Source of the DNA: an uncultured delta proteobacterium
Lineage (GTDB): Bacteria; Desulfobacterota; Binatia; UBA9968
Assembly: GCA_963760795.1 (NCBI GenBank)
Contig: CAVXEP010000029.1
Coordinates: forward strand, 1-64,000
DNA: 64,000 nucleotides
Direction of reading: 5' to 3'
Shown: positions 38,567 through 46,325 of the stretch, piece by piece
How positions within the stretch are numbered: the first letter of the stretch is position 1
Layout of the letters: each line of letters opens with the position of its first letter
Notes under the pieces: model-generated
Database searches by the model: none
What the model saw: the letters and a program-made list of their open reading frames with translations, nothing else
Told to the model about the DNA's origin: nothing
Made by a program: the position numbers and the translations under genes

Positions 38567-39586
38567 CTATTTGTCGCACAATATTCGCGCCAATTTCGCA
38601 ACGTTTTCCGGCGTCGGCACCGTCTGATCTTCGAGCACCGGCGAGAACGGTACCGGCACATCCATGGCGCCCATCCGTTTCACCGGCGCATCGAGATAAT
38701 AAAATGCGCCGTCGGCGATCACCGAAGCGATCTCGGCGGTGACGCCGTATCGCTCGTAGCCTTCATCGATGACGATGGCGCGGCTGGTTTTTTTTGCGGA
38801 CTCAATGATTGTCTGCTTGTCCAGCGGCGCGGTGGTTCGAACATCGACGACTTCGGCGCTGACCTCATACTGTGCTAATAATTCCGCCGCTGCCAGCGCG
38901 ACCTGAACCATGCTGCTGGTGGCGACCAGCGTGATGTCGCTGCCGGCGCGCTTCACGTCGGCGACGCCGAGCGGAATTGTGTATTCTTCCGTCGGTACAG
39001 AACCTTTGAGCTGGTACATCAGCTTGTCTTCGAAAAAAGCCACCGGGTTATCGTCGCGGATCGCCGATTTGAGCAATCCTTTAGCGTCGTACGGCGTTGA
39101 CGGCACGACAACTTTCAAGCCGGGAATGTGACTCAACCAGGCGTGCAAGCTCTGGCTATGCTGTGCCGCCGAGCGGCGCGTGGCGCCAAGCGTTGTGCGT
39201 AAGACCATGGGAACTTTTAGCCTACCACCGGACATGTAGTGAATCTTCGCCGCCTGATTGACCATCTGGTCCATTGTCAACGTTATGAAGTCGCCGAACA
39301 TGATGTCGACCACCGGGCGCATGCCAGTCATCGCCGCGCCGACCCCGATGCCGGCGATGCCGGCTTCCGAAATCGGCGAATCGATCACGCGCTCGGTGCC
39401 AAACTCTTTTACCAACCCCGACAAAACTTTGAACGGCGTGCCCGCCTCGGCGACATCTTCGCCGATGATGAATACCGTCGGATCGCGCCGCATCTCTTCG
39501 GCGAGCGCTTCGTTGATTGCCTGGGCAAAGGTGATTTCGCGCAAGCCGGTTTCGACTGTCGGTGTTTTTTGAGGCGGTGATTTCAT
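38567..39586 (-). CDS. TPP-dependent dehydrogenase E1 beta (acetoin/pyruvate DH-like)
   Basis: IGEDV, DSPISE, VNQAAK, AAQHSQ, PGLKVV. Confidence 0.95.
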   Translation of the reverse strand: MKSPPQKTPTVETGLREITFAQAINEALAEEMRRDPTVFIIGEDVAEAGTPFKVLSGLVKEFGTERVIDSPISEAGIAGIGVGAAMTGMRPVVDIMFGDFITLTMDQMVNQAAKIHYMSGGRLKVPMVLRTTLGATRRSAAQHSQSLHAWLSHIPGLKVVVPSTPYDAKGLLKSAIRDDNPVAFFEDKLMYQLKGSVPTEEYTIPLGVADVKRAGSDITLVATSSMVQVALAAAELLAQYEVSAEVVDVRTTAPLDKQTIIESAKKTSRAIVIDEGYERYGVTAEIASVIADGAFYYLDAPVKRMGAMDVPVPFSPVLEDQTVPTPENVAKLARILCDK

Positions 39587-39676
39587 GCTGTATGGCTCTC
39601 AGCCGTTAGGTCATCCAGGAAATACGCAAGTTTCGATTACTTGCTACCAATCGAAAAGCGGACCCGCGGACCAAAA

Positions 39677-40739
39677 TCATTTGACCACTCTCTCCGCCCG
39701 CATCAGCACCACCGGTGGAATCGTCAAGCCGAGAGCTTTGGCTGTCTTGAGGTTGATCATCAGTTCGTATTTGACCGGCTGCTGCACGGGTAGGTCAGCG
39801 GGATTCGTTCCCTTGAGAATTTTGTCCACGTAGACGGCAGCACGCCGGTATATGTCAGTAGAGTCCGGTCCATAAGACATGAGACCACCGACGTGAATCC
39901 AATCGGTGTCCGGGTATATTGCCGGCAGCCGGCGCTTCGCGGCGAGTTCTACGATCCGTTTTGGATTACTTTGGATGGGAGACTGCTGCGCAACGACTAG
40001 AGCGCCGGCTTGCGCCTTGGTCGCCGCCTCGAATGCACTATCGATATCGTTGGGACTTCGCACTTCGAGAGATTGAACCAGCACGCCGAGGTCTTGTCCT
40101 GCGGTCGGATCTCTTTTAAGACCACGTCTGGGATGGATTATTGCTCGGATTCAAGAGGACGCCCACACGGGTAAGTCTGGGAATTGTCTCCTTGAGAATC
40201 TCCAATCGTTTTCCGTACAACCCCGGCGCGCCGGTACTGAACCCGGTGATGTTGCCTCCAGGCTGTGCGAGACTAGCCACCAACCCACTGGCAACCGGGT
40301 CGACGTCGCCAACGGATATGATTGGAATCACGCTAGTCGCTTTCTTGGCCGCGCGTCCTGCCGGGCCTCCCGCGGCGAAGATGATATCAACTTTGAGCCG
40401 AACCAGTTCAGCTGCGAGGCCGGAAAGCCGTTCAACGTTTCCCTCCGCCCAGCGGTATTCAATATTGATGTTCTGCCCCTCAACATAGCTCAATTTCCTA
40501 AGACCTTGCCGCAAGGCTTCGGCGTTGAGCGATGCGCGACCACCAGTGCCGACGCCTAGAAAACCCATCCGGGATACTTTCCCCGGCTGCTGCGCCTCGG
40601 CCACAGCCCCACAAGCCGCCAGCGCGAAAGCAATTATAGAAAGCCCCACCCATTTTCGTCTGCGGGGCCGCTTTTGGATTTTGGATTTTCGATTGTCGGA
40701 TTGAAACCACCGAATTGCAGTCGGAAATTTCTTTGTCAT
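39677..40739 (-). pseudogene. ABC_sub_bind-type substrate-binding protein, disrupted at about 40095-40125
   Basis: YVEGQNI.IEYRWAEG, AELVRLKVDII, DPVASGLVASLAQPGGNITG; then GGLMSYGP, PADLPVQQP, INLKTAKALG in another frame; several indels at the junction. Confidence 0.85.
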
Positions 40740-40783
40740 GTCCTAGTCCGCCAATCCAAAATCCAAAATCGCAAATCCAAAAT
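40672..40783. repeat. Short-period palindromic element (7-nt period, TTTTGGA / TCCAAAA) enclosing the SBP start codon
   Basis: TTTTGGATTTTGGATTTTCGATTG ... CAATCCAAAATCCAAAATCGCAAATCCAAAAT. Confidence 0.85.
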
Positions 40784-40819
40784 TTCTTACTGTTGCCTAA
40801 TGCCCATTGCCTTCAAGTC

Positions 40820-41827
40820 TCAAGCATATACATGCTGATCGACTTCACCCGGTTCCGGGTACGGCGTATTGAGGGCGAAGTTTACGGCGTCTTTGATTTC
40901 CGCCGAGACTTCGTTTTCGATTCGTTGGCATAACTTGCCGTCCGCCAGTTTATTCTTCTCAAGCCAAGCGGCGAGCAGCTTCACTGGGTCGCGCTTCGAT
41001 TTCCACTCTTGCTCTTCGGCTTTGGTTCGATAGTAGGCGCGGTCGATGTCGCCGACGTGATGGCCGTGGAAGCGGTAGGTGAGACATTCCAAAAAGGCCG
41101 GCCCGTCGCCGCGGCGCGCGCGCTCGACTAATTTTTGCGCGGTGGCGTGGAGCGCGCGCACGTCCTGGCCGTCCAGCGATTCAACGTGAATGCCGAATGC
41201 TTTAGCGCGTCCGGTCACTTCGCCAGCGGTGGTTTCGCGATAATGGGTGTACTCGTTGTACTGATTGTTCTCGCACACGTAGAGCACCGGCAGCTTCCAG
41301 AGCGACGCCATGTTCATCGTTTCATAAAGCAGCCCTTGCCCCAGAGCGCCGTCGCCGAAGAAACAGACCGCAACTTGATCGCTCTTGCGCATCTTGATCG
41401 ACATCGCCGCGCCGGTGGCGATGCCGGCGCTGCCGCCGACGATCGCATTCGCTCCCAGATTGCCGGTGTCCTGGTCGGCGATATGCATCGATCCGCCTTT
41501 GCCGCGGCAGTAACCGGCCTCTTTGCCGAGCAACTCGGCGAACATTCTGTCCAGCGCTGCGCCTTTGGCGATGCAATGGCCGTGGCCGCGATGGGTGCTG
41601 GTGATGTAATCGTCTTGCCGCAACGCTTCGCAGACACCGACGGCCACCGCTTCTTCGCCGATGTAGAGATGGGCGAGCCCCGGCATCTTGGCGCCGAGAT
41701 AAAGTTGATTGACCTCTTCTTCGAAGAGACGAATCTTCAGCATCTGCCGGTAGAAGTGGAGCCAGCGCTCGTCGTGGGCGGGAGCGCGCGCTGGCGGGTG
41801 CATTTTGGTCTTCTTGGATTGTGCCAT
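40820..41827 (-). CDS. TPP-dependent dehydrogenase E1 alpha
   Basis: HLYIGEEA, STHRGHGH, GKGGSMH, TPP motif GDGA...ENN, TYRFHGH. Confidence 0.95.
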   Translation of the reverse strand: MAQSKKTKMHPPARAPAHDERWLHFYRQMLKIRLFEEEVNQLYLGAKMPGLAHLYIGEEAVAVGVCEALRQDDYITSTHRGHGHCIAKGAALDRMFAELLGKEAGYCRGKGGSMHIADQDTGNLGANAIVGGSAGIATGAAMSIKMRKSDQVAVCFFGDGALGQGLLYETMNMASLWKLPVLYVCENNQYNEYTHYRETTAGEVTGRAKAFGIHVESLDGQDVRALHATAQKLVERARRGDGPAFLECLTYRFHGHHVGDIDRAYYRTKAEEQEWKSKRDPVKLLAAWLEKNKLADGKLCQRIENEVSAEIKDAVNFALNTPYPEPGEVDQHVYA

Positions 41828-41846
41828 CGGAGCGTCACCGTGAAAA

Positions 41847-41932
41847 ATTGGAGTACTGGAGTGTTGGAGTAATGGAGTATTGGGTTTTCCGGAACCCATC
41901 ACTCCACCACTCCAGTACTCCATCACTCCAAT
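41847..41932. repeat. Short-period palindromic element (8-nt period, TGGAGT / ACTCCA)
   Basis: TGGAGT at 41849, 41857, 41865, 41873; ACTCCA at 41901, 41909, 41917, 41925. Confidence 0.9.
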
Positions 41933-41938
41933 CTGCCA

Positions 41939-42817
41939 TCACTTCATCCCCGCCATTTTCGCCAGCACTTCGAAGACGATGGCGAAGTCCTTTTCCGCCA
42001 ATCCCATACCGCGGGCGGCGGTGAGAAATTGATTGGTAATTGAGGTTGTCGGCAGCGGCACATCGAGTTGGCGGCCCATTTCCAAGGCGAGCAGCAAATC
42101 TTTTTGCATCATATTGACGTCGAACCAGGCTTCGTCCGGCATGTTCAACACGAACGGTCCACGATATTTCACCATCGGCGAGGCCATGACGCTATTGAGC
42201 ATTACTTCGACGGCGGTTTCGCGCGCGATGCCGCTCTTCTCGGCGAGCAGCACGCCTTCGCTGAAGGCAAGCATTTGCACGGCGAGACTTAAATTGGTCG
42301 CGATCTTCATCGACACGGCCAAACCGTTGGCGCCGACGTGGGTTGCCTTCGGGCCGATCGCTTGGAGCACCGGCAGTACTTTTTCAAAGGTCTCCCGCTG
42401 GCCGCCGACCATGAATGAAAGCTTGCCTTCTTCGAGAGTGATCGAGCTGCCGGAGACCGGCGCATCGAGCATCTGCGCGCCCTTGGCTTCAACTAGTTTA
42501 GCGGTGGCGCGGATCGCCGCCGGACTGACCGTACTCATGTCGACGTAAATCTTACCGGCGGTAAGCCCTGCCAAGATTCCGTCCGCGCCGGCCGTGACCG
42601 CGCGTAGCGCTTCGGTGTTGGCGACCATGGAGAAAACCATGTCGCTCGCTGCGGCGGCGCGACGCGGCGTGTCAGCCCAATTCATTCCCAGGTCAAGCAG
42701 CCACTGCGCCTTGGACTGGGTGCGGTTGTAACCCGTTACGCTGTGGCCGGCGTCGAGCAGCCGTTTCGCCATCCGGCTGCCCATCACTCCGAGACCGACG
42801 AAACCGAGACTCGCCAT
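41939..42817 (-). CDS. beta-hydroxyacid dehydrogenase family NAD(P)-dependent oxidoreductase
   Basis: GFVGLGVMG, YNRT, DMST, LDAPVSG, MK..N, MQKDL. Confidence 0.92.
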   Translation of the reverse strand: MASLGFVGLGVMGSRMAKRLLDAGHSVTGYNRTQSKAQWLLDLGMNWADTPRRAAAASDMVFSMVANTEALRAVTAGADGILAGLTAGKIYVDMSTVSPAAIRATAKLVEAKGAQMLDAPVSGSSITLEEGKLSFMVGGQRETFEKVLPVLQAIGPKATHVGANGLAVSMKIATNLSLAVQMLAFSEGVLLAEKSGIARETAVEVMLNSVMASPMVKYRGPFVLNMPDEAWFDVNMMQKDLLLALEMGRQLDVPLPTTSITNQFLTAARGMGLAEKDFAIVFEVLAKMAGMK

Positions 42818-42852
42818 CGACAACTCCAACAAAAAGTCTGAAACTATTTTCA

Positions 42853-42994
42853 TCTCGCCAAGCCGCAAAGGCGCAAAGCTCGGAAGAAATGTCATTTCGA
42901 CCACAGGGAGAAATCTTCTGAGATCCCTCGCATTCGAAACTCGGGATTACGGGACATTTGCCCGTTACCTTTGCGTCTTGGCGCTTTTGCGAGA
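42853..42994. repeat. Short-period palindromic element (CGCAAAG units) with nested GTCAT-type REP-like sequence
   Basis: TCTCGCCAAG-CCGCAAAG-GCGCAAAG ... CTTTGCG-TCTTGGCG-CTTTTGCGAGA; inner GTCATTTCGACC...CTCGGGATTAC at 42891-42950. Confidence 0.8.
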
Positions 42995-43009
42995 GATATT
43001 CCGATTCGG

Positions 43010-44023
43010 TTAACTTTCCGCCTTGATGTACTTGCCCATCTCTTTCAGCGTCTCGGGCGTTTGGTTGAACAACGCATTAAAATCTTTGGTGACCTGTTCG
43101 GCGGAGATGTATGAAAAATCGATGCGCGCTCTCTTCGCTTCGGCGATGAGCTCTGGATCTTTGATCGCCTTGGCGAATGCTTCGCGCAATACGATCACGC
43201 GATCTTTCGGCGTGTTCGGATGGACGGCGAACGCGCGGCCAATCGCTTGAGGAATAGATTTGATCGACATCAGCGACTTGCCCAGCGCGCTGGTTGCCAG
43301 ATCTTCGTCCACCGGCAGATTTTCATAGCCTGGCAAAGCCGTGCGGCCGCGCACCAGCGGCCTGACGGCGCCACGGTCGGCGGCGAGTTTGATCGTCGTT
43401 GCCAACGCCGACCAGGCGTCCACTTCTTTCCGCTCGACAGCCAGCAGGACATCGCTGTTGGAAGGATAACCGGCGACTAATTTTAGTTTGGCGCCGGCGA
43501 ATTCCTTCAGCAGCAGGGGGAAGTCATGGGCGTTGGAGCCTGGTCCAGTAGTGCCGGCAACCAGTTCGCGGTCAGCCTTCTTCAAATCGTCAAAGCTCTT
43601 ATAAGGAAGGTCCGGGCGGATCGAGAACATCACGCCGTCGGCGCCGGAGGAGCCGAGCCACTGAAACTTGCGGGCATCGAAGCGCGCCTGTGGAATTTTC
43701 GACATCTGCGCGATGGCGACATTAGGGTTCGCCGCGAGTATGGTCAAGCCATCCGGCTTAGCGATGTTGAATACGTTATTGGTCGCCAACAGATGGGCTG
43801 CGCCAGGCATATGTTGCAAGATCACCGCCGGCTTGCCGGGAATGTATTTGCCCAAATGGTGCGCGACGATGAGCGCGGCGATTTCAAGACTGCCGCTCTT
43901 GGCGCCGATCAGAATGGTGACGGCTTTGCCATCGTAAAAATTTGCCTGTCCGAAAGCCGGCGCTTGCGCAAGGATGAGCCAAGTTAACAGCGAGAAAACC
44001 GTCATCTGCCGAGCTAGCTTCAT
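43010..44023 (-). CDS. TctC/Bug-like substrate-binding protein
   Basis: Signal peptide, FYDGK, LGKYIPG.P, MPGA, KPDGLT, GYP..D..LAVER.EVD; AGGAGG RBS. Confidence 0.85.
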   Translation of the reverse strand: MKLARQMTVFSLLTWLILAQAPAFGQANFYDGKAVTILIGAKSGSLEIAALIVAHHLGKYIPGKPAVILQHMPGAAHLLATNNVFNIAKPDGLTILAANPNVAIAQMSKIPQARFDARKFQWLGSSGADGVMFSIRPDLPYKSFDDLKKADRELVAGTTGPGSNAHDFPLLLKEFAGAKLKLVAGYPSNSDVLLAVERKEVDAWSALATTIKLAADRGAVRPLVRGRTALPGYENLPVDEDLATSALGKSLMSIKSIPQAIGRAFAVHPNTPKDRVIVLREAFAKAIKDPELIAEAKRARIDFSYISAEQVTKDFNALFNQTPETLKEMGKYIKAES

Positions 44024-44066
44024 GTAATCCTCCTGCAATACGATTCTTACCATTGATGTTAAGGGT

Positions 44067-44255
44067 AAATCCGAAATCCGAATATCGAAAGAAGCCCCGC
44101 GGACCGAAACATGGCGCAGCCAAATAAGTTTTAAACCCGAAGAAAATCCAAAACGCCGAATCCACATTGACTTTGTTTGGAATTTTCGGTGTTTTTGAAC
44201 ATTCGAATTTGTTTCGGGCCGCAGGGCCGCTTTCATGCTTCGGATTTCGTGTTTT
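44067..44255. repeat. Short-period palindromic element (7-nt period, AAATCCG / CGGATTT) with a 13-mer in both arms
   Basis: AAATCCGAAATCCGAATATCGAAA[GAAGCCCCGCGGA]CCGAAAC ... GTTTCGG[GCCGCAGGGCCGC]TTTCATGCTTCGGATTTCG. Confidence 0.85.
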
Positions 44256-44343
44256 CCCTTTAGCTAGGTTCATACCAACAACTTTACCGAAGCGACGCAA
44301 GGGTATGTGATTCTATTGACGCCAGTCAAGCCAATTACCACGT

Positions 44344-44820
44344 TTAAAGGCCAAGCCACGCCTGCAGCACGCCTTGTTCGAATTGTAAGTGCACGAGTTT
44401 TTGAAACAGCCCATAAAATATCGCCCAGGTGATTGCCGTTGCTGCGATCGTCGGCAGCGCACCGACACGGCTTTCAAAGCGGAGATAGCAGCAAATAAAC
44501 AGCGGCACGGTGAGCGGAAAGCCGATCAGGTAAACGCAGAGAATGAAACCGGCGATCCAAGAAAACGCCGTGATCACGCGCCGGCGCTCGACCTCAGGCG
44601 GGACGTCGCTGGAAAACTCCAGGTCGACCGCCGCGCTCTCGATAACGTCTGCTTTGCCGAGAAACAGCTGCCAGAGCTGAGTCGCGGCCAGGATCAAAAG
44701 TGGAATACTCACCGACAGCGGAAACAAAGCCGCTTTAAACGGCCATTCGAGCGCCAGGTAGATCGCCGCAGCAGCGACCAAGATGAGGAAAACGCAGAAG
44801 AGTATGCGGCCCTTATGCAT
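44344..44820 (-). CDS. tctB: TctB family protein
   Basis: 4-5 TM segments, FP motif, GF...VPLF; overlaps tctA stop. Confidence 0.8.
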   Translation of the reverse strand: MHKGRILFCVFLILVAAAAIYLALEWPFKAALFPLSVSIPLLILAATQLWQLFLGKADVIESAAVDLEFSSDVPPEVERRRVITAFSWIAGFILCVYLIGFPLTVPLFICCYLRFESRVGALPTIAATAITWAIFYGLFQKLVHLQFEQGVLQAWLGL

Positions 44821-46325
44821 TCGCTTGGCTCTGGGCGCGCTGGCGCCGTTTCTGGATATACGGATAAGCGATCACGAAGAGCATGAGAATGATTAAAAAG
44901 ATAACCATCGGCTGCCTGAGCCAGGCAAAGCCGTAGCGCGCGACAGAAATAAAGAAATAGGTCTCGATGACTTTGCCCAAGACGAAGCCGAGAACGAAGG
45001 GTGGACGAGGCCAGCCGAACAGCACCATAAAATAGCTGAGCAGGCCGAAGATCAGCGTGACAAGCAAATCGATGATCTGGCCGTTGGCGGTGTAACTGCC
45101 GACAAAAACCAGCAGCAGAACGAAAGGTATGATGAGACCACCGCGCACGTTGGTCACTTTGGCCAATTGATCGAGGATCGTTAGGCACAAGAGCACGGCG
45201 ATGATGTTAGCGATCACCAAGGTCCAAACCATCGAGAAGGTAATCGGCAGATGCTTGGTCAGCATGTCGGGTCCAGGTGACAGGCCCATGATCAAAAAGG
45301 CGCTGAGCAGGATCGCCATGGCGCCGCTGCCGGGAACGCCGAAGGCGACCGTCGGGATCAGTTCGCCGCCTTCTTTCGAATTATTCGCCGCGCCCGGTCC
45401 GAGAACACCGCGCACATCGCCTTTGCCGAAGCGTTCTCTGTCCTTGGCATCCTTGGCGCCTTGGACGGCGTGAGCATAGGCCATCCATTGGGCAACGCCG
45501 CCGCCGGCGCCCGGCAGGATGCCGACGAACACGCCGACCACCGAGCAGCGAAACACCAGCCAAAAATGGCGAAAGGTATCTTTGATCCCTTCGATCACGC
45601 CGCTGCGCAAATTCTCCGCCGGCCGCTCGCCGGCGATCGCGGTGCCGCGCACGGTGAGATCGATAATTTCCGGGATCGCGAAGACACCGACCAACACTGG
45701 CACGAAGTCGAGACCTTCCCACAAATACATTAAGCCCCATGTCAAAACGGAGCGACCCGGACTGGCGCTCTTGGCCAATGGTGGAAACCAGCAGACCAAA
45801 CAGACCCATGGCGAATCCCTTGACCTGGCCGCGCGCGCCGGCGCCGCTGAGCGAGGTGATGCAGGATATGCCGATGACCGCCAGCATGAACAACTCCGGC
45901 GAACCAAAGGCGAGCACCAGCGGGCGGACGATCGGAATCGCCAGCGCCAACGCCACCGCGCCGATCAGCGCGCCGACCAGCGAGCTCATCAGCGCCGCGC
46001 CGAGGGCGCGACCAGCCTCGCCATTCTTCGCCATCGGATGACCATCGACAACTGTGGCGGCGGAGATCGCCTCGCCGGGCACACCGAAAAGCACTGAGGT
46101 GATATCGCCAGTGGTCGCGGCGACGGCGTGCATGCCGAGCAGAAACGCGAACGCCTCGGCGGGCTGCATTTTGAAAACGAACGGGATCATCAAGGCGAGA
46201 GTGGCCGCCCCACCGATCCCCGGGAGTAGGCCGACGCAGAAGCCAAGACCCATGCCGACCAGCATCAAGCTGAAAGCTTTCCATTGAAGCACCAGGAAGA
46301 GACCGTCGATGAATGCGTCGAACAT
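44813..46325 (-). CDS. tctA: TctA permease, +1 frameshift at about 45743
   Basis: GLLPGIGG, SVLFGVPG, DGHPMAKNGEAG; then GAANNSKEGG, PTVAFGVPG, PGPDML. Confidence 0.9.

Follow-up and report, generated by a model that had tools for sequence, protein, structure and literature searches.

What is the GC-rich block of 13 nt that stands where a single T would be expected, at four sites, in the repeat arrays of contig CAVXEP010000029.1 from an uncultured soil delta proteobacterium, and how did it come to be there? The window examined here is the whole 64,000-nt stretch of this contig, and the 6.58-Mb genome that contains it is referred to as G000. In the preliminary description of the window, the block had been reported as GCGGACCCGCGGA at 39658-39670 (+), GCGGCCCCGCAGA at 40659-40671 (-), GAAGCCCCGCGGA at 44091-44103 (+) and GCGGCCCTGCGGC at 44218-44230 (-), each in the context AAA[x]C(C/G), and all four copies were found at those positions and on those strands. 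Around every copy the context extends to (A/G)AAA[x]C(C/G)(A/G)AA, where x is the 13-mer. The only self-complementarity within the 13-mer is GCGG..CCGC around 2 bases.

The block is hosted by foldback repeats of two families, both built from 7-base units. In type 1 the arms consist of AAAATCC-like units and form hairpins between genes or just ahead of genes, and type 2 is a 150-250-nt foldback made of AAATCCG/CGAAAC units; both heptamer contexts, as had been described, were seen around the block. The four copies also form the two inverted pairs that had been noticed. Copies 1 and 2, inverted relative to each other, bracket a split substrate-binding protein (SBP) gene, the first in a short CGAAAA/CCAAAAT array just beyond the stop codon and antisense to the gene, the second on the 3' arm of a type-1 hairpin, at its outer base, with 6 nt between it and the conserved TGG (KW) codon that follows in the gene. 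Copies 3 and 4 lie in the left and right arms, respectively, of a type-2 foldback, where they are predicted to pair with each other.

Comparison of orthologous loci established that the GC-rich 13-mer replaces exactly one T inside 7-base repeat arrays. The net gain of 12 bases leaves the block frame-neutral, so that it can be tolerated in gene leaders, in the N-regions of signal peptides and in protein loops. In our assessment there is an even chance that mosaic heptamer-array foldbacks carry the 13-mer as an optional, frame-neutral module, which had a single origin within one genus and has been shuffled by conversion, by recombination of arms and by turnover of whole elements.

Abundance and length of the 13-mer in the genome

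The expectation that the motif would occur above background frequency was borne out for the 13-mer with its flanks and not for the bare 13-mer. With up to 3 mismatches allowed, the bare 13-mer gave 62 matches in the window against 59.4 +/- 8.6 in shuffled sequences, which is background. Across G000, AAA..C flanks were found on 11 of 14 exact, 14 of 31 one-mismatch and 9 of 476 two-mismatch copies, 34 copies in total, whereas the control flank TTT..G was found on no exact copy, no one-mismatch copy and a single two-mismatch copy. This flank-bound recurrence (34 versus 1) is far above chance and rules out a chance origin, while an assembly artefact is ruled out by recurrence of the motif in many independent assemblies. 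The block also recurs inside 7-mer arrays, with 32 of the 45 copies that have at most one mismatch located in A-rich arrays on inspection by eye. Such arrays are plentiful in G000, where AAAATCC is the commonest perfectly doubled heptamer (326, both strands counted) and about 166 AAAATCC-type arrays are present. The second commonest perfectly doubled heptamer is AACCTTG (242, counted in the same way).

The length of the block, which had been described as always 13 nt, proved to be fixed between unit flanks. Where the canonical flanks were 1 nt apart (n=73) the base was T; inserts of 8 nt (n=12) were T plus a degenerate unit; 18 of the 19 inserts of 13 nt were the 13-mer motif; and some of the six inserts of 20 nt were the 13-mer plus 7 nt. 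Inserts containing a GCCCCG core were 13 nt long in 28 instances in G000 and in 125 instances in loci from other genomes, the latter fetched with a fixed-length pattern so that only their extra copies are unbiased, and a few variants of 11, 12 or 14 nt were seen. Neighbouring units may both hold the 13-mer, giving a period of 19 nt. The insert lengths between unit flanks were also examined for split half-sites or a scar with cargo, and in this search, which was not exhaustive, longer inserts with 13-mer halves at their ends did not emerge as a family.

T and 13-mer alleles at orthologous loci

The predicted alternation of T and 13-mer alleles was found at orthologous loci, both in alignments with relatives and in the TctB-TctC spacer. 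Twelve loci from relatives were aligned to G000. In three of them the difference was clean, with a single T in G000, the 13-mer in the relative and identical flanks (L019 in a type-2 arm, L035 and L044 in type-1 arms), and in three others the 13-mer was present in both genomes (L028, L037, L045). The whole element was missing from G000 at a further three (L032, L040, L046), and the last three contained a degenerate unit (L029), no clean counterpart (L031) or a different element (L021). For the closest relative, G040, 13 loci were fetched, nine of which had both flanks on one G000 contig, and six were aligned. The 13-mer was shared at two (L199, where the copies are identical, and L181, where the G000 copy has two substitutions), G000 had a clean T at one (L191), one gave no clear state (L201), and two were differences of a whole element (L193, L197). 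L191 falls within an open reading frame (ORF) with AMP-binding and PP-binding domains, resembling a nonribosomal peptide synthetase (NRPS), in which G000 reads ...ESDNPKSQIQNPKFDK...; the G040 version is longer by 12 bases, an in-frame difference of four codons.

The TctB-TctC spacer was compared in eight congeneric genomes. The left and right arms of the element both hold the 13-mer in G000; G006 has the 13-mer on the left and T on the right, G008 has T on the left and the 13-mer on the right, and G041 has T in both. In G040 the left arm has T and the right arm is missing through truncation, and G003, G038 and G002 have no element. The states of the two arms are independent of each other, and they turn over between species; the elements of G006, G008 and G041 are clearly orthologous and yet differ in arm state. 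The element is found on one side of a conserved flank word in G000 and G040 and on the other side in G006, G008 and G041, which indicates at least two insertions in this spacer. No target-site duplication was evident there, at either of the two insertion points used in the different genomes.

Contigs of related strains from soil metagenomes that cover 38600-45000 were short and mixed, with cover of 39884-40525 near zero. At site 4 these strains have the consensus letters (44218 G>T, 44223 A>G) in three contigs of metagenome X1 and five of X7, and one 628-nt X1 contig covers the whole type-2 element without gaps. No T/13-mer alternative was seen at sites 1-3 in these short, mixed contigs. A few joints, each from a single contig, bypass the type-2 element or the SBP gene; their sides were only 20-49 letters long, and they were not relied on. 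Decay of the 13-mer in place was seen at window site 4 and at C25:183653.

Phyletic distribution

Relatives were searched with the 17-mer AAAGCGGCCCCGCRGAC, allowing at most one mismatch; the reversed control pattern gave 0-1 matches per genome. The 17-mer was present in 13 of 31 related genomes, in very uneven numbers: 49 copies in G008, 29 in G000, 18 in G006, 10 in G003, eight in G013, six in G004 (count only) and none in many genomes of the same genus. An additional search found 44 copies in G041, 19 in G040 and five in G038. G023, from another family of the same order, has three copies, all of them exact. In an even draw across the class, the exact 17-mer was present in two of 151 genomes, G000 and one genome of the same genus. 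A scan of one genome per species returned at least 107 stretches, always in the two known contexts and nearly all in records titled Deltaproteobacteria, Candidatus Binatia, Syntrophobacter(aceae) or Thermodesulfobacteriota; two lone matches under other labels are consistent with chance. The viral contigs that were searched gave no matches. The 13-mer is therefore nearly confined to one genus.

The host arrays have a different distribution. The T-allele arm CGAAATCCGAAACAAA was found in 29 of 31 genomes of the genus and is abundant in some that have no copy of the 13-mer at all, namely G011 (40), G018 (32) and G014 (11). The arrays do not need the 13-mer, which is accordingly an optional passenger rather than an essential recognition site of the elements.

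Spread of the block among arrays

If the 13-mer is an optional module with a single origin, then AAA-[13]-C would have arisen once in place of AAA-T-C and would since have been spread and erased, by some form of copying, among the roughly hundred near-identical arrays of each genome. Three routes may have contributed. Homology-driven copying, by ectopic gene conversion or template switching, could write the block into a T unit or overwrite it; recombination of the two inverted arms of a hairpin could flip the block to the other arm; and whole host elements, with or without the block, would be gained and lost.

For the first route, the orthologous elements of G006 and G041 differ at 10 of 30 positions around the 13/T site and at 6 of 121 positions elsewhere (Fisher p 8e-5, with bounds that were chosen post hoc). 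The linked variants are those of a sub-family with which the 13-mer is often associated in other copies, and the patch looks like a conversion tract. The rate of divergence varied between loci, with 8 of 49 positions differing in the array segment against 36 of 951 in the flanks at one locus (p 9e-4), and an array that was not diverging faster (1 of 50) at a second.

The second route had been anticipated in the suggestion that the block is copied between hairpin arms. That the 13-mer can be on either arm in different species was confirmed, since G000 and G013 have it on opposite arms at two loci. At one of these (C4) the core of the hairpin aligns better inverted (3.5) than direct (-3.0), with a maximum of 3.0 in 500 shuffles, which suggests recombination between the arms; the case for inversion is this one locus, where the core is quasi-palindromic.

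Several observations weigh against the combination of one origin and homology-driven shuffling. The weakness of the inversion evidence is one, and at the second locus (C14) the orientation of the loop is kept, and the other arm of G000 may hold a decayed copy. The same exact boundaries are found in two array families that have only 3-6 bases of flank in common, which plain homologous conversion explains poorly unless arrays of intermediate units served as bridges. Several of the swaps have identical flanks, so that no tract is visible, and the argument for conversion comes from the single G006/G041 patch. The consensus is letter-identical in the three copies of G023, which neutral drift does not predict and which needs either horizontal transfer or constraint. 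Finally, the two arms of type-2 elements in G000 had no clear tendency to match, the eight pairings (with one right arm counted twice) being T/T in four, 13/T in two and 13/13 in two, numbers that are too few to judge.

Alternative explanations

It is unlikely, but deserves to be weighed, that the 13-mer is a selected cis-acting signal, a protein- or RNA-binding site or a structural clamp that tunes the transcription, mRNA stability or translation of adjoining genes, many of which encode transporter binding proteins. Fourteen of the 34 copies in G000 are sense with the frame open for at least 300 nt downstream, in a leader or N-terminal position, and the letter-identical consensus across species, G023 included, would fit such a role. 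In the SBP leader a single in-frame GUG precedes the hydrophobic core, and the predicted fold pairs bases 3-10 of the 13-mer with GUGGGGCU over this codon; the two type-2 copies are predicted to pair together. However, the T allele is found with the same genes and arrays in G000 and in its relatives, and the block is shifted by 0, 1 or 2 units with respect to the start region. Other copies in G000 are antisense at gene ends or in foldbacks that hold no gene, a relative has a copy inside an ORF, and most hairpins have the block on one arm only. The paired copies of the window (9 of 13 pairs) show no compensatory changes. Intrinsic terminators combine a GC-rich stem, a loop of 3-8 nt and a U tract; eight such sites were found where 6.5 +/- 3.0 were expected, none of them formed by a 13-mer pair, and the paired copies of the window are 114 nt apart, so that a terminator was not supported. 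Rfam 15 gave no family at the gathering score over 39300-44600, only sub-threshold look-alikes of microRNA hairpins. We found no evidence of a cellular function for the 13-mer itself.

A dedicated site-specific process, whether a nuclease, a recombinase or a templated insertion, that recognises AAA-T-C within 7-mer units and exchanges T and 13-mer would make the block a tiny mobile module, and this we consider improbable. Its chief support is the exactness of the boundaries and the invariant length in two array families that share few flanking bases. Adjacent units that both hold the 13-mer are as expected if each T is a target, and the clean differences with identical flanks at three loci, the independent states of both TctB-TctC arms and the presence, in two arrays, of another GC-rich module (net +24) at this unit position point the same way. 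No candidate for the enzyme was found, however: the flanks of S23p genes, of PDDEXK_3 genes and of two of the three Y1 transposase genes in G000 are without the 13-mer. One swap is set in the patch of linked differences between G006 and G041, the 13-mer decays in place at some loci, and arrays are abundant in congeners that are free of it. Known mobile DNA has subterminal hairpins or inverted ends, for which 13 bases are too short. The earlier suggestion that the block is the recognition core of a site-specific enzyme is, in that form, not supported by these observations. A bolder form of the same idea, in which the block is a 13-base cassette and the smallest mobile DNA yet seen, written into and removed from the T of AAATC(C/G) by a site-specific or templated activity, frame-neutral by design and an invader of two older repeat families in one genus, is speculative and more improbable still.

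The preliminary description had also noted that the gain of 12 bases preserves the frame and that the block is translated in the SBP leader. From the ATG at 40739 the frame does read ...KIQKRPRRRKW..., although it is translated only in the sense of an open frame, and the SBP gene is split into two ORFs. Across the SBP family, 6, 13 or 20 nt separate the 13-mer from the conserved KW codon, so that the frame of the 13-mer rotates, which indicates that the protein does not constrain it. That the block is kept for its encoded peptide, adding four residues (KRPR, for instance) to reinforce the charged N-region of signal peptides, is hardly credible: the window gene, the gene at C19:329322 and one gene of G023 do read ...QKRPR(R/G)..KW and then a hydrophobic core from an upstream ATG, in keeping with the preserved frame, but the rotation, the many non-coding or antisense copies, and the two out-of-frame cases among six genes with a recognisable upstream ATG (in frame in four, as read by eye) all speak against it.

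Two SBP genes of G023 (L030 and L038) have a good Shine-Dalgarno sequence and ATG, followed by the array, the 13-mer and the KW core. One of the two is in frame and the other is off by one 7-base unit, which resembles an on/off switch by slippage, or a broken gene. In G000, an ORF whose domains are AMP-binding, AMP-binding_C and PP-binding (C18:68606-69937, corresponding to L204:2107-3438, minus strand) contains a type-1 array in frame, reading ...DFPTPESDNPKSQIQNPKFDKRLV...

Comparison with known repeats

As in bacterial interspersed mosaic elements (BIMEs), the arrays are dispersed intergenic units put together in different ways from a limited stock of motifs: variants of the 7-mer unit, the 13-mer, a module of 25 nt and conserved spacers, the order of which varies. 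Like the BIMEs and repetitive extragenic palindromic (REP) sequences of enterobacteria, they are dispersed in operon spacers, combine a few motif types with optional short modules, form hairpins and vary in copy number between close relatives. Unlike them, their arms are tandem 7-base units rather than a palindrome of 20-40 nt, and the 13-mer is not a palindrome. A GTAG/CGTC tag is named as a REP feature in the text available from PMC3733652, and the 13-mer has no such tag. The 13-mer was not identified as a REP or a REPIN mobilised by a REP-associated tyrosine transposase, given the missing tag and palindrome, and of the three PF01797 (Y1 transposase) matches in G000 the two whose flanks were read have neither arrays nor the 13-mer beside them. 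A GTAG-tagged palindrome, GTAGGGGCCGAC..GTCGGCCC, which is a classical REP-like unit, adjoins several type-1 arrays of G000 (C1:3733, C20:84173, C32:22717, C25:186879).

The host foldbacks, but not the 13-mer alone, have the terminal inverted repeats and the presence or absence at orthologous sites that mark miniature inverted-repeat transposable elements. No parent element bearing a transposase turned up, though none was searched for systematically.

Heptanucleotide repeats comparable to these arrays are known from cyanobacteria as short tandemly repeated repetitive (STRR) sequences. In Geobacter metallireducens, tandem heptanucleotide repeat elements occur at dozens of sites (PMC2700814), and the available text of that paper describes arrays of four or five 7-base units, both intergenic and intragenic, some as inverted pairs and with no known function, in all of which they resemble the arrays examined here. 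Their unit sequences are different, and that text describes no module that replaces one base of a unit. This paper was the only one returned by a literature search on heptanucleotide repeats, and a text search with four spellings of the 13-mer returned only one unrelated cloning paper. The 13-mer module is a new variant among mosaic dispersed repeats, for which no precedent was found in the literature.

The palindromic elements of Rickettsia are in-frame repeats inside genes, 100-150-bp units that are inserted whole. The arrays resemble them in that a repeat is tolerated in frame in proteins and signal peptides, as with the array in the NRPS-like ORF where the 13-mer adds four codons in G040, and differ in that a 13-base block is swapped with one base inside an existing repeat. 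Templated mutation at quasi-palindromes and gene conversion between inverted repeats copy or erase heterologies between arms or dispersed copies with exact boundaries. These are processes rather than a family of elements, represented here by one conversion-like patch and one possible inversion. DNA uptake sequences number hundreds to thousands of copies per genome, and the 13-mer, with 0-49 copies located inside arrays, is too scarce to be one.

Foldbacks of the same arm design enclose genes elsewhere in G000, which has five S23p (PF05635) and three PDDEXK_3 (PF13366) matches above the curated cut-offs. The S23p genes (C32:416198, C31:40508, C25:182751, C31:29990 and C19:326276) and the two PDDEXK_3 genes whose flanks were read (C7:2150 and C4:254602) are each enclosed by inverted arrays whose 7-8-base units differ in sequence from one locus to the next; these arrays are without the 13-mer. 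The foldbacks of the window differ in their units, in carrying the 13-mer and in being gene-less or, once, bracketing an ordinary SBP gene, and as they enclose no S23p or PDDEXK_3 gene they were not assigned to such heptamer-armed gene cassettes.

Host foldbacks and neighbouring genes in the window

The type-1 foldback (40672-40783, -) consists of inverted AAAATCC-type arrays at about 40672-40710 and 40744-40783 around a conserved spacer that holds ATGACAAAGAA, and as RNA it has a predicted folding energy of -55.1 kcal/mol (z -3.9). The SBP gene (ABC_sub_bind, PF04392; 39677-40739, -) is split into ORFs at 40116-40739 and 39677-40084. This gene is placed between the E1 beta (38567-39586) and E1 alpha (40820-41926) genes of a 2-oxoacid dehydrogenase, which in most relatives abut or are parted by arrays only. 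In G006 an intact SBP gene is found between the E1 genes, with an ordinary Shine-Dalgarno sequence and ATG, a different signal peptide and no arrays.

The type-2 foldback of AAATCCG/CGAAAC units (44060-44258, no strand assigned) occupies the spacer between TctC (43010-44023) and TctB (44344-44820), where congeneric genomes have it, lack it or have one that is differently built. Its predicted fold as RNA is more stable (-89.9 kcal/mol, z -7.3). Another foldback, at 41847-41930 in the gap between E1 alpha and the next gene, has arms of the 8-base units TGGAGTAN and NTACTCCA, a unit type that also flanks the S23p gene at C31:29990 in G000.

The 25-base module, CCTGTCCTGAGC..GCCGAAGGAT (net +24), is found at the AAAA|x|CGAAAAT position of type-1 arrays at C5:86398 and C8:45818 in G000, and also at C13:42727 and C25:186899. 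Its core, GTCCTGAGC..GAAGGA, has 42 copies in other repeat contexts.

Implications

Heptamer-array foldbacks are widespread and unexplained. The choice between T and the 13-mer is a clean two-state character that can be traced at many orthologous sites in about thirty congeneric genomes. It offers a natural marker with which to measure exchange between repeats, be it conversion, inversion of arms or turnover of elements, and to test whether an enzyme is involved. It also makes visible that heptamer-array repeats edit gene leaders, and even the loops of enzymes, in frame.

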